35,205 nt of DNA. Origin: Alkalispirochaeta sp. Lineage in GTDB: Bacteria; Spirochaetota; Spirochaetia; DSM-27196; Alkalispirochaetaceae. A program made the translations under genes and the position numbers. The stretch spans positions 1 to 35,205 of the forward strand of contig JBAYPC010000001.1 of the NCBI GenBank assembly GCA_041677905.1. Direction: 5' to 3'. Shown here piece by piece: positions 302 to 29,309 of the stretch (positions are counted from its first letter, which is position 1; each line of letters opens with the position of its first letter). Under the pieces are notes generated by a model that was not told the origin of the DNA, searched no databases, and saw only the letters and a list, made by a program, of their open reading frames with translations.

Positions 302-1828
302 ATGAACAAACGCGCCACAAACGCGAGACAGTCAGTTCGACTCGTTGTGATTATGAGCCTCATAGGGGGAATGATATCACAAAATGTCTCGGCCCAGACA
401 GTGCGTATCAGTCAGGACCCGCCCGGTCTGGAACGGATCGTTCTCGGCGGGAGAAACGGGTGGGAGCAGGTTCGCCAATTCGACAACGTCGGTCTTGAAT
501 CCGGCTGGAGGGGGGGAAAGGACCTCGTCATTACCGGCTATTCCGATCCTGTAGAAACGGCGGACTTGAGGGCGGAGTTTGACCGTTCGCTGGGAGATTT
601 TGACGGCCCCTACCGTCTGGATCAGTCCGGGACTGTGAGGCACAGTACGCAGATCACCCGTTTTGGAGACGGTGCCGCCGCGTTTGACGGCAGTTCGTTT
701 CTCTCTTTCAAGCCGTCGACGTCGAGTCTGTTTGCGCCGAACACCCAGCCGGGTTCATTTGTGGTTGATATCTGGGTGTATCCGATCCGCATTACCGAGG
801 GGGCGGAGATATTCCATTGGAACGGCGCTCTGGTATTCGGAGGACATCCGGTGCTGCAGGAAATGCGCCTTGTTTTAGATGGTGGACGTTTCCACTGGGT
901 GATGAACAACACTGTTGTCCGGGTCGACAATGACGGCAGACAACAACTGAAGAACGTCACTCTGTCGGCCCGCCGGGGTCCCGTTCCGGGGCGATGGACC
1001 CACCATCGGCTGCGGTATGATGGAGAACGGAGCCAGCTTGCCTATCTGGTCAACGGAACCCCCGAAGCGATCACCTACCTGACCGATTCGGGACGGGAAG
1101 ACGGCGAGCGATTCGCAGTCCTTTTGGGGGTCGATACCGGCGAAGGAGTCATGATCGGAAAGCACTTCCAGGGGGTTGTCGACAGTCTTCACATTGAACG
1201 GGGGGCCGATGTGCCGGTGCGGGTCCGGCGATACACCGGCCGTCCCGGTGAATTTGTTACAGCACCGATTCCCCTGGGTTCTCGTGGTGGTGACATCTAC
1301 GCTATCCGGAGTCGGACCGAGACGCCGGGCAACACTGAAGTGCGGCTGTTCTACCGGGTGGGGAATCGATTTGGCGATGGTCTCTGGCGGCCTGTAACCA
1401 ACGATGGAGTTTTCGAATCGTCCGGAGGTGAGTACCTTCAGCTGCGAGGCGTCCTGTTGAATGACGCATCACATAACCACTCGCCACGCCTGCAGGAACT
1501 GGAAATTCTCTACCGGCCATTCAAACAGCCGCCGGTGCCCGGTGGAATACGGGGACGAAGTGTTCCCGGCGGCGTGGAAATCAGCTGGGATGGGGTGTTC
1601 AGTAAAGACGTGTCTGGATACAGGGTCCTTTTTGGAGAACAGCGCGGGCGGTATCTCGGGACCCCTGAGGTTAACTCTCCGATCTCCGTTGGCAGTGGTA
1701 CGACCGTTGTAATCGACAATCTTGTTCCGGACCGGTCTTACGTCTTTGCAGTTGAAAGCGTAAACCAGTACGGGCAAAGCAGTGCTCTTTCTCGAGAAAT
1801 TGAAGTAAGAGCCGGGGGGATGGACTGA
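302..1828 (+). CDS. Exported protein with a LamG/ConA-like jellyroll domain and a C-terminal fibronectin type III domain
   Basis: Start moved from 8 to ATG 302 because 8-268 is antisense to uvrC. There is a signal-peptide-like N-terminus (MNKR...LVVIMSLIGGMISQNVSA-Q), LamG-like motifs (FVVDIWVYP, WTHHRL..YLVNG, FQGVVDSLHI) and an FN3 pattern (VEISWD..GYRV..NLVPDRSYVFAVESVN..G.SS). Confidence 0.72.
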   Translation: MNKRATNARQSVRLVVIMSLIGGMISQNVSAQTVRISQDPPGLERIVLGGRNGWEQVRQFDNVGLESGWRGGKDLVITGYSDPVETADLRAEFDRSLGDFDGPYRLDQSGTVRHSTQITRFGDGAAAFDGSSFLSFKPSTSSLFAPNTQPGSFVVDIWVYPIRITEGAEIFHWNGALVFGGHPVLQEMRLVLDGGRFHWVMNNTVVRVDNDGRQQLKNVTLSARRGPVPGRWTHHRLRYDGERSQLAYLVNGTPEAITYLTDSGREDGERFAVLLGVDTGEGVMIGKHFQGVVDSLHIERGADVPVRVRRYTGRPGEFVTAPIPLGSRGGDIYAIRSRTETPGNTEVRLFYRVGNRFGDGLWRPVTNDGVFESSGGEYLQLRGVLLNDASHNHSPRLQELEILYRPFKQPPVPGGIRGRSVPGGVEISWDGVFSKDVSGYRVLFGEQRGRYLGTPEVNSPISVGSGTTVVIDNLVPDRSYVFAVESVNQYGQSSALSREIEVRAGGMD

Positions 1829-4800
1829 TGAAACATCAGGAACGACTTGACCGGGCCGTGAACGCCTTTCGGGTCAATGACTATGAGGTGGCCGCGAACC
1901 TGACACGTGATCTGCTCCGCGATTTTCCCGATCTTACGGCGGCGCACGTCCTGCTTGGAACGATATACGGAAAGCAAAAACGGTATGCCCCTGCCATTGA
2001 GTCGTACGAATATGCGGTCGCTCTCGATCCCCGGAACTACGAGGCGCTGAATAACCTGGCCGTCATCTACCGCCAGACCGGCGATACCGAACACGCCCTG
2101 GAAACGATCAGGAAAGCACTGAAGTACGACGGTCAAAACGGTGAGATCTACTATAACCTTGGAAATATCCACAAGGATCTGGGTAACTACCCCGAGGCGA
2201 TCGAAGCGTATGAAAAGGCTATCAAGACAGACCCGACGCTGACTGTGGCGTACAACAACCTTGGTACTCTTTTTGACACCCAGGGCAGACACGATGAAGC
2301 TCTTGAGGTATTCCGGAAAGGGTTGGAACAGGATGGTAACCACCCGACCCTCCACTACAATTTGGGAAATAGTTACCAGGCCATGGGGCGTCTTGAGGAG
2401 GCGCGGAAGAGTTACGAAATTGTGCGCCGGACCCGACCTGGTTGGGGAGAGGCGCTCAACAACCTCGGTGTTGTTCTGGACAAGATGGACGCTCTGGACG
2501 AGGCGCAGGAGATCTACTCTGAACTCCTTGAGCTTCAGCCCGAAAACCACACCGCCCGAAACAACCTGGGGACCGTCCTTGCCCGACAGGGACGTGTGGA
2601 CGACGCGATTCGCCACTTTCAGGCGGCGCTGAACCAGTCACCTCAATATGCACGGGCGGCCGGTAACCTGGGGCAGCTGGCGGAGCACGCCCAGGATGTC
2701 GTTGAGGCGCGCAGAATTCTGCAGAATCTGATACAACAGGACCCCGACAACACCCGACTGCGCAAGAGCCTCGCCCGGGTATACACCAAGTCAAATATGC
2801 ATGATCAGGCGGCGGCCGCCTGGGAACGGGTCGTTTCAGACGATCCTCACAACCTGGACGCACAAAGAGATCTGGGACTGGCTCAGTACCGCAGCGGTAA
2901 ACGGGATCTCGGTGAGGCAACTCTGGCGCGATACGCCCAGCAGAACCCCGGAGATTCATCGTATCTGGCCGATCTCGCGGACATCCTTGGGAAGGAAGGG
3001 TTGTACGAAGAGGCTCTGGAATACGCCGACAAGGCAATTCAGACAAACCCCGACGACGTAGCCGGGTTGCTTCGAAGAGCGGAAGCTCTGGCCGGGCTCG
3101 GCCGAAGTGATGACGCAAAAACGGCTCTGGACGAGGCCGACAACCTTACTCCCAATGACTACCGTGTGTTGGCGTCACGGGCAGAGGTTCACCACACGCT
3201 GGGTGACCGGGATGAGGCTCTTGCAGCCGCCGACGAACTCGTATCGCTGCAGGGAAACCGGGGAAGTACGGAAGACCTGGATAACCTCAACAAGAGTTTA
3301 GAACTCTACGAGGAGATGGTTCGCGACTTTGAAGCTGAAAACGCGGAACAGTGGCGTCGGAATCTGGACAGATTGGGCCATCTCGCGCGGCGCGGTTCTG
3401 ATGAGCCGGCCGTATCAGCCATGGACCGGGACGAAACCGGTGACTTGGACGAAGAGTCTATCCCGATTCTGAACTTCGGAGACGACACCCTCAGTGCCGA
3501 AGAAGATGAAGAAGAAGATCAGGATGGCGACGAGATTGACGAGTATCTGGAGTACCTGCCTGACGATCAGCTGGAGCCGGAGATGTTGCGATACGGCGGC
3601 GATGGTTCGGGTAGTGGTGGGGGTGCCGGGGGAGGTATGCCTGATGGACAGCCAGGTATCGGTGACCCCGGAACAACCGACGCACCCGACGCACCCGACG
3701 CAATCGACGATGACGTATTCGGCGAAGGACCGATCAACTCCGGCGATCTGCAGGATATTCCGGTAGATGACGATGAGATGCCCTTTGATTTTGGTGATAC
3801 CCTCGGCGATGCCGACGCCGACGCCGATGCCATGAAAGGGATGCCCTGGAAAAGCCCTCAGGCCCCGCCGATGCCGCTGCCCGAGAAACCGGAACCTACT
3901 CCGGAACCGGAGCCAATCCCAGAACCGGAGCAAATCTCAGACCCAGAGCAAATCTCAGACCCAGCGCCTACGCCGGAACCTGCATTTCCACATGAAGGTG
4001 ACTCGGAGGAAACCGAAGACGAAACCGAGGATGAAGATCAATCGGTAGAACCTGAGGTTGAGCCGGAACCGGAACCCGCGTTCAAACCTGAGCCAAAACC
4101 AAAACAAGAGCCGAAACTTGAGCCAAGACCTGAACCAAAACCCGTGGCAAAACCGGTGGGTGAACCCGAGCCGGAGCCTGAACCACCTCTTGATGACGAG
4201 TCAGACACAGGTCCTCCGGAAAGTCCTCAAGAAGAGGATTACCCGGAAGAAGAACCCACCGAAGACGTTTTACCCGACGAAGTTCCGGAAGAACCGTCGG
4301 AGCCCTCTGCTCCCGCCGCAACACATCCACCTGCGGAGCCGGAAAAAGAGCCTGAAAAAGAGCCTGAAATTGCCCGGACCGATCCGCCGCCGTTAGAAAC
4401 GGTGCCCCCGGACGGTGGGGTGCCTCAACCGGCCGGACCTCAGGAAACACCCGGTGAACCGGCTCCTCCTGTGGCCGGACCACCTCCCCCTGGAGCCGAA
4501 AGCGCCCAGGACCCGACGCAAGACCCGGCTCAGGACCCGACGCAAGGTACTGCCCCGGGACCTGCAGCACAACCCCGGGAAGGTACGGAAGACGTCCCCA
4601 AACCGGACCCGTCATTGCGACGCAAACTCAAGGAGATGATCGAGAAACTCCGGGACAAGTTGGCGCCGCCGCCTGAACCGGAGGTACCGCCGTCTGAAGA
4701 CACCCCCTTCGGTAAGCACGCCCGTCTCTTCAAGTACCTTATGGGCCTGGCCGGAAGCCTGCCGCCCGACCGGGACAGGGAGTATCAAAACAGTGAGGAA

Positions 4801-5070
4801 CGGCTGAAACTGGCAGGGCTGCACGCTCGACTCAGCGGACGTGAAACGCTCCGTGACAAACTCGATAGACTCAGAAAAAAGCAAGGAACACCGGCGGAAG
4901 AGAAGACCTCTGTCGACACATCGCTGGACCGGAAGAAAATCGCTGCGACTTTTGACTACATCGGTGACGTGAGCACTTATTTACCGGATAAAGATATCGG
5001 TGAACAGCTGCGGACCCGTGCCACCGCAGTGTCTATCGAACTACTGAAACCGAACCAGGAAGACACCTGA
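1828..5070 (+). CDS. Tetratricopeptide-repeat protein with a long acidic Pro/Glu-rich linker and a C-terminal helical region
   Basis: Repeated TPR consensus (AYNNLG, YYNLGN, ALNNLG) over roughly the first 480 aa, then about 400 aa of D/E/P-rich low complexity, then a charged helical C-terminus. The start overlaps the upstream stop (TGATG). Confidence 0.88.
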   Translation: MKHQERLDRAVNAFRVNDYEVAANLTRDLLRDFPDLTAAHVLLGTIYGKQKRYAPAIESYEYAVALDPRNYEALNNLAVIYRQTGDTEHALETIRKALKYDGQNGEIYYNLGNIHKDLGNYPEAIEAYEKAIKTDPTLTVAYNNLGTLFDTQGRHDEALEVFRKGLEQDGNHPTLHYNLGNSYQAMGRLEEARKSYEIVRRTRPGWGEALNNLGVVLDKMDALDEAQEIYSELLELQPENHTARNNLGTVLARQGRVDDAIRHFQAALNQSPQYARAAGNLGQLAEHAQDVVEARRILQNLIQQDPDNTRLRKSLARVYTKSNMHDQAAAAWERVVSDDPHNLDAQRDLGLAQYRSGKRDLGEATLARYAQQNPGDSSYLADLADILGKEGLYEEALEYADKAIQTNPDDVAGLLRRAEALAGLGRSDDAKTALDEADNLTPNDYRVLASRAEVHHTLGDRDEALAAADELVSLQGNRGSTEDLDNLNKSLELYEEMVRDFEAENAEQWRRNLDRLGHLARRGSDEPAVSAMDRDETGDLDEESIPILNFGDDTLSAEEDEEEDQDGDEIDEYLEYLPDDQLEPEMLRYGGDGSGSGGGAGGGMPDGQPGIGDPGTTDAPDAPDAIDDDVFGEGPINSGDLQDIPVDDDEMPFDFGDTLGDADADADAMKGMPWKSPQAPPMPLPEKPEPTPEPEPIPEPEQISDPEQISDPAPTPEPAFPHEGDSEETEDETEDEDQSVEPEVEPEPEPAFKPEPKPKQEPKLEPRPEPKPVAKPVGEPEPEPEPPLDDESDTGPPESPQEEDYPEEEPTEDVLPDEVPEEPSEPSAPAATHPPAEPEKEPEKEPEIARTDPPPLETVPPDGGVPQPAGPQETPGEPAPPVAGPPPPGAESAQDPTQDPAQDPTQGTAPGPAAQPREGTEDVPKPDPSLRRKLKEMIEKLRDKLAPPPEPEVPPSEDTPFGKHARLFKYLMGLAGSLPPDRDREYQNSEERLKLAGLHARLSGRETLRDKLDRLRKKQGTPAEEKTSVDTSLDRKKIAATFDYIGDVSTYLPDKDIGEQLRTRATAVSIELLKPNQEDT
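3925..3960 (+). repeat. In-frame 18-bp tandem duplication encoding PEQISD x2
   Basis: ccggagcaaatctcagac followed by ccagagcaaatctcagac (one mismatch). Confidence 0.85.
4507..4545 (+). repeat. In-frame 12-bp tandem repeat encoding QDPT-QDPA-QDPT-Q
   Basis: caggacccgacg caagacccggct caggacccgacg caa. Confidence 0.8.
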
Positions 5071-6696: not shown

Positions 6697-8487
6697 ATGC
6701 CGAAAATTGAAGTCTACCGGGACGTACTGGTTTCATCTATCGGTGCCGGTTCCCTGAGCGACCACCAGTTGGAAGAGATTTTTCCCGCAGCCAAGGCGGA
6801 GCTGGACGAGCCGGCCGACGCCAACGGTATTATGAAGGTCGAGTTGAACGACACCAACCGCCCCGATCTTTGGTCTACCGCCGGCCTTGGACGGCAGCTG
6901 AGGATTTACAAGGGTGCGGGCGCACCGAAGTACACCTTCTTCTCCGACGCTTCGGTCCGGAGGGAGCACGGAAACCGCCGCGTTGTTGTGGACAAATCAG
7001 TCCAGAAGGTGCGCCCCTGGGTGGTGGGTTTCGTCATGACCGGTAAACCCATCAGCGAGGCGATGCTGAAAGACCTCATTCAGACCCAGGAAAAACTCAC
7101 CTGGAACTACGGCCGCAAGCGCCGGTCCATAGCAATGGGCGTCTACCGGTCCGATCTGATCGCCTATCCCGTTCATTACCGCGCCGTTGATCCGGATACC
7201 ACTCGGTTTACCCCGTTGCAGTCCGACCGGGAGCTCTCCATGCGGGAAATTTTGACGGAACACCCAAAAGGTCAGGAATTCGGTCACATCGTTGCAGACG
7301 AAAAGCTCTTTCCCCTGCTGACCGATGACGACGGTGAAGTTCTCAGTTTCCCGCCGGTCATCAACAGCGCAACTCTCGGGGCCGTTCAGGAAGGGGACGC
7401 CTCTCTGTTTATCGAACTGACAGGCAGCGACCTGGACTCACTCCTCCACGCCGCTTCAATTGTCGCCTGTGATATCGACGATATGGGGTATACCGTTGAA
7501 CCGGTCCAGGTCGAATACCCCTATGACACGCCGTATGGCCGGAATATCACCGTTCCCTACTACTTCCAGAAACCCCAGTCCGCCGCCTTAAGCGAGATCA
7601 ACGCCCTTCTCGGAGAAACACTGTCTCTGGACGAAGTTGTCACCGCACTGAAGCACATGGGGATCACCGCCACCGAAATAGCCGGCTCAACCGGCACCAG
7701 GGGGTCCGCAGAGGTCCTGATCCGCGTTCCCGAGTACCGGAACGATTTTCTTCACGCCGTGGATATCGTGGAAGACGTGATGATCGGACGGGGAATGGAC
7801 AGTTTTGCACCGGAAATGCCTCGGGACTTTACCGTCGGACGGCTTACACCGTTGGAAGAGTTTACCCGCCGCATCAAGAGCACCATGGTCGGCCTTGGTT
7901 TCCAGGAGATGATCTTCAACTACCTCGGCTCAGGGAAAGACTATATCGAACTCATGTACGATGAACTGGACCGGGAAGCGGCGTTTGCCCGGGCCGTGCG
8001 TATCGCCAATCCCATGAGCGAAAACTACGAGTATGTCCGCCCGTCGGTTCTACCCTCTTTACTGGCGTCGGAATCGGTCAGCGGAAATGCAGTCTATCCA
8101 CATCACATCTTCGAGTCCGGTAAAGTCGCAGTTCGGGACGACGACGAGGTTACCGGAACGGCTACCAGAACTACCCTCGGGTTTCTCAGTGCCGACCGGG
8201 AAGCCGGTTTCAATATGATAAATTCTCACGTATCGGCTATACTTTTTTACATGGGACGGGACTACGAACTCCGGGACGTTCGGGATTCCCGTTTTATTCC
8301 CGGCAGGGCTGCACAGATTGTGGCGCCGGGAACCGGTAAAAAAGGAAAGGCCCCCTCGGTTCTCGGGGTTTTCGGTGAACTGCATCCCCGAGTTCTTGAA
8401 AACTGGGGTGTGCAAGTTCCATGTACGGCCGGAGAACTGATTCTGGAGAGGTTGCTGGAACAAGGTGGTAGAGGTTCAACCGACTGA
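6697..8487 (+). CDS. pheT: Phenylalanine--tRNA ligase beta subunit (short, archaeal/eukaryotic type)
   Basis: NRPDLWS, QEKL, VLSFPPVINS, RNDFLHAVDIVEDV and NPMSENY..RPSVLPSLL motifs. It is 596 aa, has SD AAGGAG, and lies directly after pheS. Confidence 0.95.
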   Translation: MPKIEVYRDVLVSSIGAGSLSDHQLEEIFPAAKAELDEPADANGIMKVELNDTNRPDLWSTAGLGRQLRIYKGAGAPKYTFFSDASVRREHGNRRVVVDKSVQKVRPWVVGFVMTGKPISEAMLKDLIQTQEKLTWNYGRKRRSIAMGVYRSDLIAYPVHYRAVDPDTTRFTPLQSDRELSMREILTEHPKGQEFGHIVADEKLFPLLTDDDGEVLSFPPVINSATLGAVQEGDASLFIELTGSDLDSLLHAASIVACDIDDMGYTVEPVQVEYPYDTPYGRNITVPYYFQKPQSAALSEINALLGETLSLDEVVTALKHMGITATEIAGSTGTRGSAEVLIRVPEYRNDFLHAVDIVEDVMIGRGMDSFAPEMPRDFTVGRLTPLEEFTRRIKSTMVGLGFQEMIFNYLGSGKDYIELMYDELDREAAFARAVRIANPMSENYEYVRPSVLPSLLASESVSGNAVYPHHIFESGKVAVRDDDEVTGTATRTTLGFLSADREAGFNMINSHVSAILFYMGRDYELRDVRDSRFIPGRAAQIVAPGTGKKGKAPSVLGVFGELHPRVLENWGVQVPCTAGELILERLLEQGGRGSTD

Positions 8488-9427
8488 TAAACCGCAGGTT
8501 CTCATTCCCTATCCCGGGCCTGAGCCTCGCCCGGAGTATCTTGATATTTTTGTCTACCTGCGTCCGGAAACCAACGGTGTTGTCGTAGAGAGCAAGATTC
8601 TCAAACTGGTCCGGGACTGTCGTGCCAATGACGTGGATATCAAACTGGTATATTTGGCCAACGTGCCCGGCGAGTACATAGTCAACCGTAAAATCATAGA
8701 ACACCATTACTCCCTGCGCCTGTACTTTGCGACTCATGGGGGAGCGGTCTTCGCGCCAAAAATGGTAGATCAGTTCGAGGACTTCTACGGAGAGCCGTTC
8801 CGGTCTGATGTCGTTATCGGTGCCTTTGATGCGCTGTCGCGGTTCAGCTGGAATCCGGACGAACTCTTTGCCCTCTGGGTCGATGAGCGTGACGTTATCC
8901 GTATCGCCGGGCAGGTGATCAAACGGTACCGCGACGTCTGGATCGTCAACTACGATATCCCCGCTCTTCTACACAAGAACAGCGCCGGAACGGATATCGC
9001 AGTCATGGCCTTCAGAACGTCCATGGGATACCCCGCTTTTTTTGAACTTGCCGCCAGGATGCAGGAAGAACTCGTAACAAGCCGCCTCCTCCGACAGGGG
9101 ATGCCGATAGCCCGGGCGGTGCACATCTCGCGCAGCCCCTTTGAGCAGCTCCTGGACAGTCGGGACTACCTCCTGTCTCCTGACGGAGAATCGCTGGGGA
9201 TCGGCGCAAGTTCCTTCGGTGCCTTCCTGCTCGAACGTGGGTTGTCCCCTGGCCACGTCCAGGCTCTGGTTGAACATCCGATCTGTCTCTTTGACTTCAC
9301 CGAGCAGGGATTATCTGTTCATAACCTGACCGATCTCTGTGAAGGGTTCAACTACAACGATGGCTGGCACATTCTGAACCGGATAACGGCGCAGTTGGCT
9401 ATTCCCCCTCATTCCTATCTCACATAG
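8465..9427 (+). CDS. Hypothetical protein, probably a divergent nucleoside-diphosphate-kinase fold
   Basis: 320-aa ORF filling the gap, with a GTG start overlapping the pheT end. Ordered motifs FVYLRPE, IIEHHY and RAVHISRSPFE parallel the NDK motifs (F..IKPD, EHY, N..HGSDS). Confidence 0.55.
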   Translation: MVEVQPTDKPQVLIPYPGPEPRPEYLDIFVYLRPETNGVVVESKILKLVRDCRANDVDIKLVYLANVPGEYIVNRKIIEHHYSLRLYFATHGGAVFAPKMVDQFEDFYGEPFRSDVVIGAFDALSRFSWNPDELFALWVDERDVIRIAGQVIKRYRDVWIVNYDIPALLHKNSAGTDIAVMAFRTSMGYPAFFELAARMQEELVTSRLLRQGMPIARAVHISRSPFEQLLDSRDYLLSPDGESLGIGASSFGAFLLERGLSPGHVQALVEHPICLFDFTEQGLSVHNLTDLCEGFNYNDGWHILNRITAQLAIPPHSYLT

Positions 9428-9497
9428 CTGTACAAATCTGTACAACAAACTGCAAAAATAACTCCATACATCAGACGTTTTCTCTCTGTGCCGTCCG

Positions 9498-9506
9498 TGG
9501 TACCAT
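9498..9506 (+). promoter_or_regulatory. Putative extended -10 element for the cNMP-domain gene (leaderless candidate)
   Basis: TGg-TACCAT ends 6 nt before ATG 9513. There is no SD and no good -35. Confidence 0.4.
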
Positions 9507-9512
9507 CTGTAA

Positions 9513-11612
9513 ATGGATCTGATCCAATTGCTGCAACAGGTACACCCTTTTCGATTTCTACGCCGTCGGCAGCGGCTGGATCTGGTCGAAATTCTCGTGG
9601 AAGGGCGCTACCAGCCCGGTGATATCGTATATCGACGCCACGATGCGGACCAGTCGGTGTTCATCGTGGCATCGGGTACGGTGGAAGTTTTTGATCCCCG
9701 CCGTACGCCGGATGACCTGGTTACGGTGATACGGACCAACCACTTCTTTGGTGAATGGGAGGCAGTTTTTCAGGAGCCCCGGATATACAGTGTCCGTGCC
9801 CGGACGGCGTGTACCTGCTATTCCATACCGGGTGAAGTCTTCCGGAAGCTGCTGCAGGATTCACCTACATTTGCGCAGGGATTCGGTTCCATCCTTCAGG
9901 ACAACCAGGGGATATTTGCGGGGTTTGAACGGTTCAGGACGCAGCTTATCCATGAGGCAGGAGAAGGTCGCGTTGATATCGGGCGGCTTCTGCCGCTGTA
10001 TCGGGAGCTGCTGCCGGCCCTCCATCCCGGCGTTTCTGAACCGAGAAAACTCGATGTCTCGGCACTGCAGTACGCAGTACGGCGGCTGCCGGACAATGTC
10101 ACCGGAACGTTCGCCTTTCTTCTGGTGGACGAGCTCACCGAGCCGTTTGAGGGGGCCGACACCGACTTCCCGGCAGTCGTGTCCGCGGCGCGACGGCGGG
10201 ATGTCTGGGAGGTCCTCCCCGGGAAAGACCTGGTACTCTTGCGGGCCGGTGATTCCGATCTGATCGATTTTGTTACGGCCCTCTGTCTGTACGCAGTGGA
10301 AGCGCGTAAGATCCGAGAACGAATTACCCGGGACGGTGCGTTGCACAGCCTGGACAGATACGTTCGATCCACTGCAGACGAGGTCAGTTCCACGGACGTT
10401 GTGGATTCAGCGGACACGATTGAAGACGCCCGCCGCTTTCTCAATACCCTGGCGTTCAGTTCCCGGGAAGTGAATGGACTGACTGCGATATGGGGGGCTG
10501 ACGCACCGCGGCGGGTCTCCGAGATCACCCGGCACCGCGAGATGTTTTCCATAAATGTCCGACGGCGGGAACGGAATTACAACGTCCGGCGTAGCGAGCT
10601 CTGGACGGCCGAGATAGCCCGGATGACCCAAAAACTGACCGGTTTTGATCCCGGGGATATGCCGAACGAACGGGGTTTTCACATCATCAGCAGCAATACC
10701 CACTCAGTCACAAACTGTCTCAACCCATGGGTCGCTGAAAACGCCGCCGCCGTAATGAATTGGGCCCGTTCTGTTGGGCACGCGATGGTCAGGGACCCCT
10801 GGAACCGTGAACCCGATCTGGTCTATGCGCTGCTGCCGGACTACTTTACCGCGCATCCGGATGATCGGGGTAAGTTCCGGTCTGCTGCCGATGAAACGGG
10901 GCAGTACCGTCTGGACTACACGGCGAGTACGGGGATTCAGGTTCAGCTTATCGATCTTTCCCGAGTCAGAGGCGCTATAGATCCGTATATCCGGCCTTTC
11001 AGTGAGTCACCGGCAGGTACAACGGATTGTATCGTCAATATCGATTACGCATTTGGTGAACAGGCTGCCCACATGATCCGTAATCTGCTGATGTTGTTTG
11101 GTGAGAACATTCGAAGTGTGAATTTTCTTGGGAAGGCCGGAGCCCTCGTTGGTAGCCGTGGTGATATACTGGTACCAACGGCGTTTATTGAGCAGCACAG
11201 TGATCTGTTTCAACCCCTGCCTCTTCGTGATACGGTGGACGGCAGGGGTTTGCAGTGCGTCGATCGCTTGAGAGACAGATTCCCGGAAGGATCCGTCTAT
11301 GAGGGGCCGTTGTTGACGGTAGACGGTACCCTGCTTCAGAACCGGCAGATGCTCAGTTTTTATCAACAGTTTTGGGACGTGATCGGTATTGAAATGGAAG
11401 GCACTCACTACTACCGCGGAATAGTTGAATCGGGACAACTTGGCGTAATCAAAAGGGATGTTAATTTTCGGTTCCTCTATTATGTCTCGGACTTGCCGCT
11501 GCAGTCCCATTCCAATCTGGCCTTACCGCTGAAACGGTCCGAAGGTGTACCGCCCCTGTACGCTATCACTCGCCATATACTCGATGAAATATCCCGGGGA
11601 GGTAGCGCATGA
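9513..11612 (+). CDS. Cyclic-nucleotide-binding domain fused to a nucleoside phosphorylase/nucleosidase-fold domain (resembles DUF6909-like proteins)
   Basis: N-terminal CNB signature (GDIVYR..D..FIVASGTVEV...FFGE......PRIYSVRA). C-terminal PNP/MTAN-like motifs LGKAGAL...GDILVP, GPLLTVD, IGIEMEG and YYVSD. Confidence 0.75.
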   Translation: MDLIQLLQQVHPFRFLRRRQRLDLVEILVEGRYQPGDIVYRRHDADQSVFIVASGTVEVFDPRRTPDDLVTVIRTNHFFGEWEAVFQEPRIYSVRARTACTCYSIPGEVFRKLLQDSPTFAQGFGSILQDNQGIFAGFERFRTQLIHEAGEGRVDIGRLLPLYRELLPALHPGVSEPRKLDVSALQYAVRRLPDNVTGTFAFLLVDELTEPFEGADTDFPAVVSAARRRDVWEVLPGKDLVLLRAGDSDLIDFVTALCLYAVEARKIRERITRDGALHSLDRYVRSTADEVSSTDVVDSADTIEDARRFLNTLAFSSREVNGLTAIWGADAPRRVSEITRHREMFSINVRRRERNYNVRRSELWTAEIARMTQKLTGFDPGDMPNERGFHIISSNTHSVTNCLNPWVAENAAAVMNWARSVGHAMVRDPWNREPDLVYALLPDYFTAHPDDRGKFRSAADETGQYRLDYTASTGIQVQLIDLSRVRGAIDPYIRPFSESPAGTTDCIVNIDYAFGEQAAHMIRNLLMLFGENIRSVNFLGKAGALVGSRGDILVPTAFIEQHSDLFQPLPLRDTVDGRGLQCVDRLRDRFPEGSVYEGPLLTVDGTLLQNRQMLSFYQQFWDVIGIEMEGTHYYRGIVESGQLGVIKRDVNFRFLYYVSDLPLQSHSNLALPLKRSEGVPPLYAITRHILDEISRGGSA

Positions 11613-12400
11613 GTCGGCGTCTTATTTTCACCAACAGGAAGGGCGGTTGCGGGAAAACGACCACCAGTGTCAACGTCGCCGCGGCATTGGCGCACATGGG
11701 TTTTCGGGTTCTGGTAATAGATACGGATCCCCAGGCTCACGCAACCATGTCCCTTGGAGTTTCTCTCGGTTCCATTTCATCGGACTTGAGCCACGTTCTG
11801 GAGGGGCGCATTGCCGCCGCTAAAGTTCTGCAGACAACCTATATTCCCCGTTTGCGGATTCTGCCGTCTTCTCGCCGGTTGGCCGATTTTGAACGGCGTT
11901 ATGCAAACAGCAAGGAGGCCCGTTTCTGGATGCGGGACCATCTGGGTCTGGTCATGAAAGACGCCGACTACGTTGTCTTCGACACGCCGCCGACGACCCA
12001 GTTGTTGACGGTTGGCGCCCTTATTGCAGGATCAGAGGCGTATGTCCCGATGCAGGCCCATTTTCTTGCTATGGAGGGCATGATCGAAATAATCGAGCTG
12101 GTGGACCAGGTTCGTCGTCACTACAACAGTTCTCTTGCCGTCCGGGGAATAATTCCCACGTTTATGGAACGCGGTTCGGCATATTCCGACAAACTCATAA
12201 AAGAACTGGAAACCCGTCTGGGACCGGAGATGATCATGAAGCCGGTACATCTGAACCGGGCTCTTGCGGAGGCGCCCGGTAAAGGTCGCACCATTTTCCA
12301 GCATGAACTGCGTAGTATGGGCGCGGTAGACTACTACCGAGTTGCCCTGCAGATCAGAAATCTTGGAAATCCGCAAAAAACCGACCGTCATAGTCGGTAG
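11609..12400 (+). CDS. ParA/Soj-family ATPase (orphan)
   Basis: Deviant Walker A NRKGGCGKTTT, plus IDTDPQAHAT, FDTPP and LAEAP motifs. ATGA overlap with the upstream gene and SD GGAGG. Confidence 0.92.
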   Translation: MSRRLIFTNRKGGCGKTTTSVNVAAALAHMGFRVLVIDTDPQAHATMSLGVSLGSISSDLSHVLEGRIAAAKVLQTTYIPRLRILPSSRRLADFERRYANSKEARFWMRDHLGLVMKDADYVVFDTPPTTQLLTVGALIAGSEAYVPMQAHFLAMEGMIEIIELVDQVRRHYNSSLAVRGIIPTFMERGSAYSDKLIKELETRLGPEMIMKPVHLNRALAEAPGKGRTIFQHELRSMGAVDYYRVALQIRNLGNPQKTDRHSR

Positions 12401-12403
12401 GGT

Positions 12404-13000
12404 TCAGTCCGTTAGAAACGCGTACAGGTCGTCGTAGGTGCGGCAGACGGGGACATCGGGATTCTCGGCGACGATAGATTCCGGCGGCGTAAAAAAGGCG
12501 CCGCGGTGAGCTTCCCTGATCATGGCAAGGTCGTTGTAGGAGTCTCCTGCGGCGTATACGTCAAATCCCATACTGCTGAACCCCCGAACGGCGTGGTATT
12601 TGCCGTTTTCCTGTCGCAGACGGTAGCTTAGGACTCTCCCGGTTGACGCATCCACGTCCAGAGAGTTGCAAAAGAGGGTGGGGTACCCGAGCTGCCGCAT
12701 GAGAGGGGCGGCAAACTCCTCAAACGTATCCGACAAGAGGACAAACTGCATAGTTTCCCGCAGTCTGGTGACGAAATCATGTGCTCCCGGGAGGGGGCTC
12801 ATGCCGGAGATCACATCCTGTATGTCCGGTAGTCCAATCTTGTTCCTGTCCAGTATTGCAAGCCGGTGCCGCATGAGCTGGTGGTAGTCCGGGATATCCC
12901 TGGTGGTCAGTTGAAGTTCATCAACCCCTGTCCGGGCGGCAACGTTTTCCCAGATTTCCGGTACCAGAACGCCTTCGAGGTCTAAACATGCCAGTCGCAT
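12404..13000 (-). CDS. thrH: Bifunctional phosphoserine phosphatase/homoserine phosphotransferase (HAD family)
   Basis: ACLDLEGVLVPEIW, TTRDIPDY, LSDTF and AAGDSYND motifs characteristic of ThrH. ATG at 13000 is preferred over GTG 13015. Confidence 0.92.
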   Translation of the reverse strand: MRLACLDLEGVLVPEIWENVAARTGVDELQLTTRDIPDYHQLMRHRLAILDRNKIGLPDIQDVISGMSPLPGAHDFVTRLRETMQFVLLSDTFEEFAAPLMRQLGYPTLFCNSLDVDASTGRVLSYRLRQENGKYHAVRGFSSMGFDVYAAGDSYNDLAMIREAHRGAFFTPPESIVAENPDVPVCRTYDDLYAFLTD

Positions 13001-13234
13001 AGGTGTTAATACCACAGAAGTGCCGGATGTACAACGTCACATGATCTTAGAGAGCGGTAAATTCGTATCGTAACTATTTAAATGAATTTTATTATTAGTT
13101 TAATGGTTGTCAGATATGGGTGAGAGATTTGTAAATATCTATATTGTAATAAGTTATACATACTGATTCCGATCTATTTCGATAAGCTGTCTCGGTTGTA
13201 TTAAAAAAAATTACTTTGCAGACTATCAAATTAC

Positions 13235-25034: not shown

Positions 25035-25105
25035 GACTGAAGTATTTGGAATTCTAACAATTACGCTTGGCATTTTGCCAAAGACTGGGTAACTTGAAGG
25101 TAATT

Positions 25106-26806
25106 ATGGCAGACTGGCTATCAAAGGTCTTCGGGCAGAAGATCAGCGGTGTGAGAGTCACGCCGCTTGTACTGAAGATCGTCACGATCTTCACCTTCTT
25201 TCTCCTCATTTCAAATTTTACTACAAACTACATCAACCTGATGTTGAACCGGGGTGAACAGATCAAGTTGCTAAACCAGCTGCTTGTAAAGGACCTGAAA
25301 GAACTTCACGTCTTTGCCGGTAACCAGCATGAGATTTTCGCGTTCAACCCCGACATGGAAGGAACGATCCGCAGTATTGAAGCCGCTGCCGAACGAAATC
25401 ACCGGGGAGACCACTCTCTGTCGATGGGTGTCCGGCCGGATGGGTCGCTCTTTTTTCAGGCCGGGCGTATAGAACGGCAGGAGACGTTCCCCGATGCTGA
25501 CGCTCTCCAGAGTATGGTGGCCGCCCGGGAGAACGGGGTTCTGGAAGGTACCACCAACTTTACGTTTGCCGGCTATAAGTACTTTGGAGTCTACAAGTAC
25601 AACGATGCATGGGATATGTATCAGATCCGCGCCGAAGAACTCGACGAGTTCTATGCCGATTCCGAGCGGATTTTCCGGCAGATCAGTCTGATTATTATCC
25701 TGATCTCGACCATCTTTGTGGTGGTGGGGATACTGATCCTGCGGTTTATCCTTCGGTTTCTCCGCGTCATCACCGACAACATCATGCGCATGCAGGGTGA
25801 CCAGGCGCTGGATATTATGGACCTGAAAGGTGCGCCCAACGACGATGTGACCTACCTGGGAGTTGCCCTGAATTCACTGACGAACACTATCGACAACCTG
25901 ATGAACATCTTCAAGAAGTTTGTCGCCAGGGACGTCGCCGCCAAGGCGTACCGGGAACGCGAAATTCGCCTGGAAGGTACAAAGCGTGATCTGACCATCC
26001 TCTTTACCGACATCAAGAGCTTTACCTTCATGACCGAGACGCTGGGGACGGACATCATCAAACTGCTGAACCTCCATTATGACCGGGCGATCAGCCACAT
26101 CCACGAACACAACGGTGACATAGGCTCCATTATCGGCGACGCCCTTCTGGCGGTCTTTGGTACGGTGGTAGACGATTCGCAGAACAAGAGTCTTCAGGCG
26201 GTGAACGCCGCATACAAGATCCACGATGTCGCAGCGTCCCTCCGAAAAGAAATGTACAAACGTCGGGAGATCATCCTCAAACAGCGTGGTAGTCTGACTG
26301 AGGCGGAGGAAGACGTTTTTCGGGCGGTCCTCCTGGAAGTCGGCGTAGGAATAGACGGTGGAGAGGTATTTTACGGCAACATCGGCAGCTACGAGCGGAT
26401 GGTGAACACCGTCATTGGAGACAACGTGAACAGCGCCTCCCGCCTTGAAGGTCTGACGCGGTTTTATAAAGTCCCTGTGGTGGTGTCGGAGTACGTCAAG
26501 GACGAAGTTGTTCAGGTGACCAATCACTACGAATTCATGGAGCTGGACCAGGTTCAGGTCAAAGGAAAGACCGAGGGTAAGAAGATATTCTGGCCTATCA
26601 TCCGGGAACACTTTGACGACCGGTTACGCAAAGATGTGGAATCGTACAAACAGGGACTGCATCTGTACTATGTCGGAGACTGGGAGGAGGCTGCAAGCCA
26701 TTTCGACCAGTGTACTTTCTCTGTCGCAGAGCTGTTTTCCCAACGAATTGCCGGTAAAAAGGCGCCGTTGGGTTGGAACGGCGTATGGACGATGAGTGAA
26801 AAATGA
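25106..26806 (+). CDS. Membrane-anchored class III nucleotide (adenylate/guanylate-family) cyclase
   Basis: Two TM helices flank a periplasmic domain, followed by a HAMP-like linker and the catalytic motifs ILFTDIKSFT, IIGDA, GVGI..GEV..GNIG and TVIGDNVNSASRLEG, VKGK. ATG 25106 with SD GAAGG is preferred to TTG 25067. Confidence 0.9.
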   Translation: MADWLSKVFGQKISGVRVTPLVLKIVTIFTFFLLISNFTTNYINLMLNRGEQIKLLNQLLVKDLKELHVFAGNQHEIFAFNPDMEGTIRSIEAAAERNHRGDHSLSMGVRPDGSLFFQAGRIERQETFPDADALQSMVAARENGVLEGTTNFTFAGYKYFGVYKYNDAWDMYQIRAEELDEFYADSERIFRQISLIIILISTIFVVVGILILRFILRFLRVITDNIMRMQGDQALDIMDLKGAPNDDVTYLGVALNSLTNTIDNLMNIFKKFVARDVAAKAYREREIRLEGTKRDLTILFTDIKSFTFMTETLGTDIIKLLNLHYDRAISHIHEHNGDIGSIIGDALLAVFGTVVDDSQNKSLQAVNAAYKIHDVAASLRKEMYKRREIILKQRGSLTEAEEDVFRAVLLEVGVGIDGGEVFYGNIGSYERMVNTVIGDNVNSASRLEGLTRFYKVPVVVSEYVKDEVVQVTNHYEFMELDQVQVKGKTEGKKIFWPIIREHFDDRLRKDVESYKQGLHLYYVGDWEEAASHFDQCTFSVAELFSQRIAGKKAPLGWNGVWTMSEK

Positions 26807-28224
26807 GTGATAAACCCAAGAAACCAGTAACGGATCTTGTAGCGCGCAGCAAATTGATCTTCCTGCAGGAAATTGTGGAGGAGTACCGGGAGAGCCATCC
26901 TCAGTACGATCTCCACGCCGAATTTGCCAAGACAAAGAAAAACCGGAGCTTGATGATACCAGGTGTCATTCTGGCGCTGATTGTTGTCTTTTCGATAGTT
27001 ATTGTCGCGGTTACTCGGTATATCGGGGTGGCCAGCACGTCGATACAGGTCAACATCGACGACTTTGCCGATGTAAACCTGAGAGATGTACTCGACGAAG
27101 CTCAACGGTTGCAGAACCAGCAGGAGGCCGCTCAGCGACAGCTCAAACAGTTTCGCGCCGAGCTTGCCGATGGGATTGCCCGAGTGGAACGGGAACGGGA
27201 TCGGAGTATACAGCTGGTGAACAACCAGGGGTTGAGCGTCGCCCGGAGAAATGCCCGCCGGGCCGAACTGACGGCCCAGGCGGAATCGGAAATTGCCAGT
27301 CTGCAGGGCGAGTACAACCCCCGGATTGCGGAACTGGAAGAGCGTATCCAGCTGCTTCAGGAGCAGATGGACCAATACGACTCGCGACAGCTCGAACAGG
27401 CCCGGGAGCAAGAGGAAATTCTTAACAACCAGCAGAAGGTGTTTGAGCTGGAAAAACAGGAAATCCGCGAAGACTACGAGGCAGAAATTGCCAGGCTGAC
27501 AAAATCGTATGATTCGGAACTCGCCCAGATGGAGGCGTTCCAACAGGACTTTGAACAGGCCGTTCGGCAACGCCACGCCGAAGAGCTGGCGGCAATGTAC
27601 AATCGGTACAACCCCGTCTTTGAACCGGAGACGGAAACACTGCTGAACCGGCCGCTTTCGGAAGGGTCCCGGACGTTCGGGCCTCTTGCGGCCTATTCAA
27701 CGACCCTCGGGGATAACGGTATCGCCTCCAGGCGGGAATACGCGGAACTGCGGCAGCAGTACGCCGAGCTGCAGCAGATTGTCGCCCGGCTGCAGGAGGT
27801 TCCCTATGAAAACTCCGTCGGTCAGGCGCTGGTACAACTGGAAGGACGGATATATGACCTGCTCCGGCGGTACGAGCGGCTCTGGACCGGTTTAGACGGT
27901 TTGGTAGCAGCCCAGGATGCTGTCATGGAGCGGCAGGAACGAAAATTGGATGGTTACTTCTATTCCGTGGATGAACTGACGAAGTTTAACGGTGAAACCG
28001 GGTATATTCTTGATCCTCGTGATCCCGACAGGATCATCGTACACATTGGGAGTGTCCGGTCTGTTCGGGAAGGGGCGCTGGGTTACGTTTTCCGTCGTGA
28101 TGATGAGTTCATCGGTTCCGTACGCTTTGTCCGACAAGACGGTGAAATGGTTGCCAGGCAGGTAGAGACCGTAGAAGATCAGGAAATACGCGCATTCGAC
28201 AAGATTCTGATTGAGGCGCAGTAA
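26803..28224 (+). CDS. Hypothetical single-pass membrane protein with a long coiled coil
   Basis: TM segment (LMIPGVILALIVVFSIVIVAV) at about aa 50-72, E/Q/R-rich heptads and a beta-rich C-terminus; ATGA overlap with the cyclase. Confidence 0.8.
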   Translation: MSDKPKKPVTDLVARSKLIFLQEIVEEYRESHPQYDLHAEFAKTKKNRSLMIPGVILALIVVFSIVIVAVTRYIGVASTSIQVNIDDFADVNLRDVLDEAQRLQNQQEAAQRQLKQFRAELADGIARVERERDRSIQLVNNQGLSVARRNARRAELTAQAESEIASLQGEYNPRIAELEERIQLLQEQMDQYDSRQLEQAREQEEILNNQQKVFELEKQEIREDYEAEIARLTKSYDSELAQMEAFQQDFEQAVRQRHAEELAAMYNRYNPVFEPETETLLNRPLSEGSRTFGPLAAYSTTLGDNGIASRREYAELRQQYAELQQIVARLQEVPYENSVGQALVQLEGRIYDLLRRYERLWTGLDGLVAAQDAVMERQERKLDGYFYSVDELTKFNGETGYILDPRDPDRIIVHIGSVRSVREGALGYVFRRDDEFIGSVRFVRQDGEMVARQVETVEDQEIRAFDKILIEAQ

Positions 28225-28253: not shown

Positions 28254-29309
28254 ATGTATAAAAAGGCGCTTTTTTTCTTTCTCGCCGTATTGACGGTCAT
28301 TGCGCCGGTGAGTGCGCAATCGGGGAGTGATCAGGTCCGGAACCAGCTGAAATCTGCGGGCTACGAGGTCACCGGCTCCCGCTCGCAGGGCGGAATGCCC
28401 GTTTGGGACTTGCGAACCGACGGTGGGATGCGCTTTTCGGTCGCCATGATTGGGTCTTTCGGTACCGTTCGCAGTCAGGCGGTGAAATCCCTTCTTGAAA
28501 TTATCTCCGGGCTGAAAGGCCTTGTCCCTGACAGTGTCCGTTTTGTCTTTGAAGAAAACAGGGCAACCGCTATAGTGATACCTCGCAGTTTTGAAATTGG
28601 CGGACAAGCGTATGCCGATTACATGCCCTCGGGAATGCAGTTCATCTATGACGACGCACCGGCCTACGATTTCCGCATGCTGGTTGAGAACCTGGCGGTT
28701 CGTATTAACGGTGCTTTTCTGACGAACCAGCAGTTCCTTGACAGGATCGTCCGGGCCGTGGAAAACCCTGCAGCGTATATTCAGAGCTCGGATCCACAGT
28801 TTCTGGCGCAGCAGATTCAGGAACTGCAGCGGCTTTTTGACCGTATATCGGCTCAACTGGCACAGCAGGCTGAAGCGATGGCCCAGGGTGACGCGGAGTT
28901 GTCAGGGGCCGTTTCCCAGGCGGTCCGAGAGGGTGAACAGGCGCTGCACCAGGTTATTCGTCAAGGCGAAGAGACGACCGAAGAGATTCACCAACGTATT
29001 ACGGAACTGCAGGTGCAGACCGAAGCGGCTTTTGAAGATGTTGCCCTTGAACGTGCCGAGTTTAGGGATCAATTCAGTCGGCTTCGTGAAGGGTTGGTTA
29101 TTCTGGCGAGTCGTAATATCTTTGGCAGTCTGAAAGAAATCGCTCCTGCAACTGCTGAACGGGTAGTGGAACTGCGTCGCGCGAATCCTGATTTATCGGC
29201 GGACGAGGCGCGCGCCCAGGTCAACAGTGAGCTGCCCGATGAGGCCACGCCGCTCCACAAGAAACACGTGCAGGCGATATACGCCCTCTTTTTTAACGAC
29301 TATCGGTGA
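28254..29309 (+). CDS. Hypothetical exported protein with a C-terminal coiled coil
   Basis: Signal peptide MYKKALFFFLAVLTVIAPVSA-Q, SD AGGAG, and a Q/E-rich helical C-terminal half. Confidence 0.8.
   Translation: MYKKALFFFLAVLTVIAPVSAQSGSDQVRNQLKSAGYEVTGSRSQGGMPVWDLRTDGGMRFSVAMIGSFGTVRSQAVKSLLEIISGLKGLVPDSVRFVFEENRATAIVIPRSFEIGGQAYADYMPSGMQFIYDDAPAYDFRMLVENLAVRINGAFLTNQQFLDRIVRAVENPAAYIQSSDPQFLAQQIQELQRLFDRISAQLAQQAEAMAQGDAELSGAVSQAVREGEQALHQVIRQGEETTEEIHQRITELQVQTEAAFEDVALERAEFRDQFSRLREGLVILASRNIFGSLKEIAPATAERVVELRRANPDLSADEARAQVNSELPDEATPLHKKHVQAIYALFFNDYR

Follow-up and report, generated by a model that had tools for sequence, protein, structure and literature searches.

Cyclic nucleotide-binding (CNB) domains are annotated by default as sensors of cyclic adenosine or guanosine monophosphate (cAMP or cGMP). 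The first exception described is protein kinase A (PKA) of trypanosomes, and more CNB ligands are expected elsewhere (PMC10959531). In T. brucei PKA, a glutamate at the place of PKA A202 (E311 or E435) contacts the ribose 3'/5'-hydroxyls and clashes with a cyclic phosphate (PMC10959531). Here, we describe a specific bacterial candidate for a further exception: CNB-DUF6909, encoded by the middle of three consecutive genes in a 35,205-nucleotide stretch of Alkalispirochaeta sp. DNA (assembly GCA_041677905.1, contig JBAYPC010000001.1, positions 1 to 35,205; hereafter, the window). Its neighbors are orfA, which codes for a remote relative of nucleoside diphosphate kinase (NDK), and an orphan parA. 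An earlier note on this DNA, made from the sequence alone, had proposed an undescribed circuit in which a cyclic nucleotide switches on nucleotide cleavage, with a phosphohistidine partner and ParA-dependent localization. The genes of the locus are real, and two of them are unstudied; the three-part circuit is not supported. The explanation that we tentatively prefer, granting it slightly less than an even chance, is that CNB-DUF6909 is a housekeeping nucleosidase that is likely controlled by nucleosides and that its neighbors, an NDK-like core gene and a ParA specific to one family, likely act independently of it.

A gap-free alignment of CNB-DUF6909 to the ligand cassette of PKG reveals canonical residues at G80, E81, and R90 and a glutamate, Glu83, in place of the alanine of the G-E-x-A motif, at the position of PKA Ala202 and T. 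brucei Glu311. Glu83 is present in 111 of 117 homologs and R90 in 116, and G80 and E81 are nearly invariant. The canonical cassette, G-E-x-A...R-(A/T/S)-A, is broken at a second place too, where Tyr or Phe stands for the Ala that follows Arg+1. Of the 15 CNB matches in the genome, three have no readable motif; among the readable cassettes, that of CNB-DUF6909 has the glutamate, and the others have Ala, Ser, Ile, or Asp. The regulatory subunit of trypanosomatid PKA (PDB 6FLO, 6HYI, and 6H4G) thus has in common with the bacterial protein the CNB fold and the glutamate at the Ala202 position (PMC10959531). The accompanying trypanosomatid change of Arg209 to a polar residue is not found here, and the bacterial protein further differs in having a single CNB domain that is fused to an enzyme. 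With its arginine kept, it resembles T. brucei PKA mutant 4 (Glu, Arg, and Val), for which the half-maximal effective concentration of inosine was 36 nM, versus 18 nM, and for which 24 μM cyclic inosine monophosphate (cIMP) was required and cAMP gave no activation (PMC10959531, Table 2). Restoring the arginine in trypanosome PKA did not lower the inosine response (PMC10959531).

Because of the Glu83 pocket, the earlier description of this protein as a nucleosidase-like enzyme gated by a cyclic nucleoside monophosphate (cNMP) is likely wrong in one part: the CNB domain and the phosphorylase fold stand, but the cassette argues against gating by cAMP. Judging by sequence and by analogy with the trypanosome enzyme, the putative ligand is likely a nucleoside or another noncyclic ribose compound, and the pocket apparently arose apart from that of trypanosomes. 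In the mechanism that we propose, the middle gene would code for a purine salvage enzyme whose CNB domain senses a purine nucleoside or similar noncyclic ribose ligand rather than cAMP. Glu83 would bind the ribose 3'/5'-hydroxyls and disfavor a cyclic phosphate, and nucleoside buildup would switch the enzyme allosterically, with activation as the guessed direction. A nucleoside ligand fits a salvage enzyme that senses its own substrate pool.

In another explanation, the enzyme and its loose neighborhood are as above, but the CNB domain still binds a cyclic nucleotide, be it cAMP, cGMP, or a less common one, and the nucleosidase would be gated by a second messenger. We regard this as unlikely, albeit with a sizable chance of being right. 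The near invariance of G80, E81, and R90 favors it, as does the response that the T. brucei mutant with both Glu and Arg still mounted to 24 μM cIMP (PMC10959531); that same mutant ignored cAMP, the predicted clash with a cyclic phosphate applies to the 111 homologs with the glutamate, and the genome's other cassettes lack it. Several observations do weigh against nucleoside control by a housekeeping enzyme. The clash between Glu and phosphate is not absolute (PMC10959531), and the trypanosome comparison is with a eukaryotic kinase that has a lid helix; CNB-DUF6909 keeps Arg90. Position 91, after Arg90, is variable (L 28, V 26, T 12, A 12, and R 11 of 117), and Glu83 may trace to one inherited event. 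CNB-DUF6909 fusions from outside the order, in other spirochaete lineages and in Myxococcota, have a small residue or proline at position 83 (Ser, Ala, Thr, or Pro), and so the ancestral CNB domain may have bound a cNMP. Also, the genome has five matches to class III cyclases, one of them within the window. On the catalytic side, the AMP nucleosidase model gave no match for CNB-DUF6909, and a single one of 38 members matched it (E 0.0065); no enzyme family model passed its cutoff, and the profile searches thus named no substrate. Finally, of the 44 linked pairs of orfA and CNB-DUF6909, 31, spread over many families, are directly adjacent, more than a loose neighborhood would require.

The window's cyclase gene (class III adenylate/guanylate cyclase) lies at 25067-26806, 13 kb downstream; neither of the next two genes (26803-28224 and 28254-29309) has a clear Pfam match. 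In several genomes, roughly 2 kb separate a canonical ndk from a small gene with a CNB domain (G025:C66, G033:C24, and G030:C1). An association of Glu83 with orfA adjacency was considered and dropped, given that the Glu form occurs at one locus (L136) whose genome carries orfA at a different site and that the genomes are nonindependent kin.

The catalytic half is best compared with AMP nucleosidase (Amn; EC 3.2.2.4; PDB 7UWQ and 1T8R/1T8S) and other members of the nucleoside phosphorylase I (NP-I) family, such as MTAN, DeoD, and uridine phosphorylase, which it resembles in the predicted fold of residues 386-697 and in a conserved Met-Glu and downstream Asp; like them, it has an additional N-terminal region. 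Distant Amn homologs retain only M404, E405, and D428 (PMC9584410). A Pfam scan of the middle gene placed PF00027 at residues 32-116 and PF21850 (DUF6909) at residues 158-693, the latter covering model positions 3-533 of 535 with 386 bits against a cutoff of 27. The AF2 model (pLDDT 91.8) matches NP-I enzymes from about residue 360 to 697 at only 12-17% identity: uridine phosphorylase at Z 18.8 (6k5g; root-mean-square deviation, 3.0; 232 residues aligned), MTAN at 18.5 (6aym; 2.7; 206), PNP at 18.2, and AMP nucleosidase at 16.4. These scores are too close together for the fold to name the substrate. Searched against PDB sequences, the catalytic domain returned just 1ybf (E 1.4) and 4l0m (E 0.14). 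Unlike Amn and its relatives, the DUF6909 protein carries an added CNB domain.

Across 117 aligned homologs, H390, N395, G540-K541-A542-G543, E627-M628-E629-G630, and S659-D660 are invariant. These residues include the ribose-binding Met-Glu pair (M628 and E629) and the base-binding Asp (D660), which would correspond to Amn M404, E405, and D428 by a reading of motifs rather than by superposition. On that reading, the DUF6909 domain is predicted to be, and likely is, an active N-glycosidase or phosphorylase; it would act on a purine nucleoside or an AMP-like nucleotide, cleaving the N-glycosidic bond with M628 and E629 holding the ribose and D660 the base. DUF6909 is distributed from Bacteroidota to Myxococcota. 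In the literature searched, a scope that left subscription papers and supplements outside, there was no mention of DUF6909 or PF21850, no paper on the proteins of this locus, and nothing that combines AMP nucleosidase with a cyclic nucleotide-binding domain. In some relatives, CNB-DUF6909 looks interrupted, whether by assembly error or by decay: the frame shifts some 17 codons past the start in G001 (L004:3460-3572), the matches contain a stop in G032 and G033, and they are split over two frames in G027 and G040. In G170 (L122:10010-12043), a RelA/SpoT gene is transcribed divergently from CNB-DUF6909.

A fusion of a CNB sensor with a PNP-fold domain recalls bacterial immunity, in which Pycsar effectors have the CNB fold and the ATP nucleosidases Cap17 of CBASS and DtcC of Detocs have a sensor fused to a PNP-fold domain. 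Cap17-type enzymes form a defense-linked PNP clade whose members belong to PF01048 (bioRxiv 2023.01.24.525353). The earlier note had counted defense among the possible roles, and an abortive-infection effector that cleaves ATP when a phage-induced cNMP appears would have the architecture seen here; PADLOC returned weak Pycsar CNB matches (E 0.008-0.01), and the CNB domain of PycTIR is among the fold matches. Nothing else points in that direction. None of 38 catalytic domains matched a PADLOC PNP effector, and the neighbors inspected are housekeeping or chemotaxis-type signaling genes, with no cyclase or defense gene among them. Moreover, CNB-DUF6909 is inherited vertically as a single copy at a fixed chromosomal site after pheST throughout the order, which argues against defense, and we give this explanation the slimmest chance of those considered.

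The description of the locus itself has stood up. Three plus-strand open reading frames (ORFs), at 8465-9427, 9513-11612, and 11609-12400, lie between pheT upstream and a convergent thrH downstream; they code for 320 (from a GTG start), 699, and 263 residues. Both overlaps are present in the sequence, one of 23 nt between pheT and orfA and one at the ATGA of 11609-11612, which joins the middle gene to parA behind a Shine-Dalgarno sequence, GGAGGT, at 11598-11603. An 85-nt spacer without overlap separates orfA from CNB-DUF6909. The GC content of the three-gene stretch is similar to that of the remaining window, and the closest named homologs of the three proteins are from Alkalispirochaeta, Spirochaeta, and Salinispira. 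Since all three are conserved in relatives, none is a chance ORF. The fold labels were also right, namely, CNB plus PNP fold, an orphan ParA, and, on weaker evidence, an NDK-like protein with its histidine kept. The features are collected in Table 1.

Table 1. Positions of the features discussed; coordinates are those of the window unless a locus label is given
Feature	Coordinates	Strand	Evidence or remark
pheT (context)	6697..8487	+	Pfam tRNA_synthFbeta, B5, PhetRS_B1; last 23 nt shared with orfA start
orfA, remote NDK-fold protein with large insertion	8465..9427	+	AF2 model, fold matches, distant kin with PF00334, conserved columns
Predicted extended -10 box, TG-n-TACCAT	9498..9506	+	6 nt 5' of ATG at 9513; upstream alignment and pattern counts
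CNB domain, aa 1-133 of CNB-DUF6909	9513..9911	+	PF00027, E 2.8e-17; fold matches, Z 15-18.5
Ligand cassette G80-E81-W82-E83...R90	9750..9782	+	Alignment to PKG cassette; Glu83 codon, 9759-9761
Middle alpha/beta region of DUF6909, ~aa 134-385	9912..10667	+	Barely covered by fold search; Atlas, only DUF6909, 0.75
NP-I-fold domain of DUF6909, ~aa 386-697	10668..11612	+	PF21850, E 2.3e-115; Z 16-18.8
Orphan ParA, deviant Walker A KGGCGKT	11609..12400	+	AAA_31, E 9e-43; Soj/ParA structure alignment; family alignment
thrH (context), convergent	12404..13015	-	NF010109, E 1.8e-82
DUF1707 + LiaF-like gene	L110:4470-5147, L114:5878-6516, L115:4864-5487, L120:9770-10354, L121:11049-11669	opposite to CNB-DUF6909	

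The closest described relatives of OrfA are the NDKs (Ndk/NME; PF00334), with which it appears to share a ferredoxin-like core. In OrfA, the NDK positions K12, Y52, R88, H118, S120, and E129 are read as Arg33, Y82, R184, H220, S222, and D231, with residue roles taken from PMC7461546. It differs from NDKs in its length of 320 residues with a large insertion, in lacking the Kpn loop, and in having Arg217 at the place of N115 in the spirochaete group. Sequence-based detection of this kinship is faint. OrfA has no Pfam, NCBIfam, or PADLOC match at the thresholds applied and no match to PDB sequences; PF00334 is not listed for its 97 close members; and profile-profile comparison with canonical NDKs is weak. 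A profile search from OrfA gathered 209 representatives, and PF00334 matched 14 of the 28 distant ones scanned, 5 of them above the cutoff; among those distant kin are multirepeat proteins from Trypanosoma theileri and from a euglenid. This chain of homologs supports an NDK-like fold. In Atlas clusters, the NDK label is on 22% and 45% of members. The AF2 model (pLDDT 93.2) gave a best fold match of Z 7.8, with chains titled NDK at ranks 3, 5, and 7 (Z 7.0-7.4), all below the Z of 8 under which the tool advises caution. Ranks 1, 2, 4, and 8 are what we take to be NDK folds of the NME5, NME7, and RP2 types. Foldseek returned no match at E 0.001 for the same model, with values of E 0.07-0.15.

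OrfA retains R33-P34-E35, H81-Y82, R184, H220 (codon 9122-9124), S222, and D231, and R33, P34, E35, Y82, R184, H220, and D231 are invariant in the 97 close members. The catalytic histidine and its acidic partner would thus be H220 and D231 in 97 of 97, in a register set by a profile alignment that is itself weak (probability 2.7%, E 0.017). In a 47-sequence alignment, distant bacterial kin keep the Kpn-loop and N-x-x-H-x-S motifs, and the spirochaete rows lack the Kpn loop (T94, R105, and V112) and have Arg217 at the N115 place. OrfA is therefore predicted to form phosphohistidine still, which we consider likely, without the clamp for the base of a nucleoside diphosphate (NDP). Given the loss of the Kpn loop and the presence of a normal ndk elsewhere in the genome, the acceptor of this putative phosphohistidine transfer enzyme would be something other than a standard NDP. 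NME6 is a caution here, having all active-site residues present and yet no phosphotransfer (PMC8597243). A role for orfA as a stand-in for a missing ndk is ruled out, since canonical ndk accompanies it in 41 of 41 genomes. Four eukaryotic proteins of 1382-2516 residues, from T. theileri and a euglenid (P0317, P0330, P0340, and P0344), carry the OrfA-type NDK domain repeated 7-8 times, and two of them have EF-hands.

Do the three genes travel together, as would be expected of the circuit in the earlier note? We surveyed 71 genomes of the order with completeness of at least 85%, comparing distances by hand from coordinates; these genomes are kin, hence statistically nonindependent, and many are incomplete. 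In this set, orfA occurs as a single copy in 70 of 71 and CNB-DUF6909 in 52 of 71 (50 by the CNB part, plus G030 and G038 from another search). In 44 of the 52, the two are near neighbors, no more than 2.1 kb apart on the same contig; the gap is below 300 nt in 31 of these pairs and at least 500 nt in 13. They are on different contigs in seven genomes, among them G367, G369, and G370, which lack orfA in the 1.1-6.8 kb upstream of CNB-DUF6909, and one genome has no orfA match. Of the wide gaps, 11 were inspected; 10 hold an opposite-strand DUF1707/LiaF-like gene and one another gene. To this extent, the expectation of conserved neighborhood is borne out, but co-occurrence of the trio is not, as ParA is limited to one family. 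The DUF1707 plus LiaF-like gene is head-to-head with CNB-DUF6909 and tail-to-tail with orfA in several families, is head-to-head with CNB-DUF6909 also in G135, from another order, where orfA was not found, and has been lost in the genome of the window.

These counts bear on another explanation, in which orfA and CNB-DUF6909 work as a pair in this order, phosphate transfer through His220, onto or off a nucleoside or nucleotide, makes or removes the ligand or substrate of CNB-DUF6909, and ParA is optional. The close linkage, the presence of an orfA match in 51 of the 52 genomes, the finding of the Glu83 form where the genome has orfA, and the conservation of H220, S222, and D231 all fit such a pair. 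Nevertheless, 19 genomes retain orfA but have no match to CNB-DUF6909, and the opposite-strand gene often lies between the two. In a sample of 301 genomes of the phylum, DUF6909 is found in 14, orfA in 17, and both in just 4. Ten further genomes from outside have the fusion; in three of them, orfA is located elsewhere, and in the other seven, it has no match. Among 80 of the 582 confirmed DUF6909 loci, 58 of 58 that are CNB-less, mostly from Bacteroidota, have no orfA, ParA, or CNB within 4 kb. We therefore give the working pair only a small chance. The three genes do not form an obligate module, as each occurs without the others.

Transcription may divide the locus as well. In 17 of 19 upstream regions from the family (f1) that has this ParA, the motif TG-n-TA(C/G)(C/G)AT lies exactly 6 nt 5' of the CNB-DUF6909 start codon, without a Shine-Dalgarno sequence. 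Leaderless promoters of the extended -10 type have this geometry. The pattern has one match in the window against 0.09 expected and is found in 36 of 212 loci, 35 times at CNB-DUF6909, although it was derived from these loci, many of which overlap. A sigma-70 scan did not flag the box at 9498, because the scan requires a -35 match. The box is nearly palindromic (9497-9506), so that its first base is the key T of an opposite-strand -10 element; all 9 genomes that have the divergent DUF1707 gene show A at this base, and all 7 that lack the gene show G, with one undetermined. Likely, then, the predicted box is shared with the DUF1707 gene where that gene is kept and is a bidirectional promoter that decays after gene loss. 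With a -10 box of its own, CNB-DUF6909 would likely form a unit with parA that is separate from pheS-pheT-orfA, read-through being possible; CNB-DUF6909 and parA would be transcribed from the leaderless promoter and orfA with pheS-pheT.

The best described counterparts of the window ParA are ParC of Vibrio and PpfA of Rhodobacter, which are ParAs of chemotaxis operons (PMC9178275). Like them, the window ParA is an orphan without parB, and its nearest paralogue (42% identity, in G017) lies directly 5' of cheA in a che operon. It differs in that it is itself outside the che operon and has no identified ParP-like partner. Its deviant Walker A motif is intact, with K11, G12, G13, G15, and K16 invariant in the family alignment. 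The DNA-binding arginines of Soj, which we take to be R189 and R218, align with Gly and Ala in this ParA, at places that are unconserved across the family. It may derive from chemotaxis-operon ParAs, have joined the locus in one family, and position a cargo other than the nucleoid.

The clade of this ParA (at least 58% identity) is present in 21 of 22 f1 genomes and in none of 19 others, most of which have the enzyme. It adjoins CNB-DUF6909 in 20 of the 21, and this adjacency, with the ATGA coupling, the strong Shine-Dalgarno sequence, and the intact Walker A motif, is what favors a three-part circuit in which ParA places the enzyme, and perhaps orfA's product, at a fixed cell site. Against this stand its absence from the other 19 genomes, the ancestry suggested by the cheA-linked paralogue, and its persistence in G020, where it is kept with orfA and the DUF1707 gene although CNB-DUF6909 has no match. 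Also, in a different family without DUF6909 (f13), an unrelated ParA with 21-22% identity to that of the window follows orfA at the same spot (L112:6787-7542 and L113:6647-7453). Taken with the retention of orfA without the enzyme, the intervening opposite-strand gene, and the promoter-like box of CNB-DUF6909, these findings speak against the circuit of the earlier note, to which we assign a slight chance.

Other genes near the locus are recorded here for completeness. At 1828-5070, the window has a 1080-residue TPR protein with a long acidic and proline-rich middle, which is conserved 5' of pheS and has a weak, below-cutoff likeness to the flagellar collar protein FlcA model NF047371. In relatives (L110, L114, L115, L021, L023, L025, and L031), the stretch from the locus to thrH often has CheB-CheR-PAS fusions, hybrid histidine kinases, and response regulators, which are absent from the window.

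A bolder extension of the preferred reading, and one that we consider unlikely, with odds a little short of those for cyclic-nucleotide gating, is that a bacterial CNB domain evolved nucleoside sensing independently and was wired to a new class of nucleosidase, with the NDK-like neighbor making or removing the ligand, such that free-living spirochaetes would possess a purine-pool switch. Independently of this, orfA, for which no reaction has been described, is a core gene of the whole order in which the NDK active site has been rebuilt. If CNB-DUF6909 does sense a nucleoside, this would be new for bacteria, and if its rear domain is the enzyme that we predict, it would provide the first activity for the DUF6909 family.

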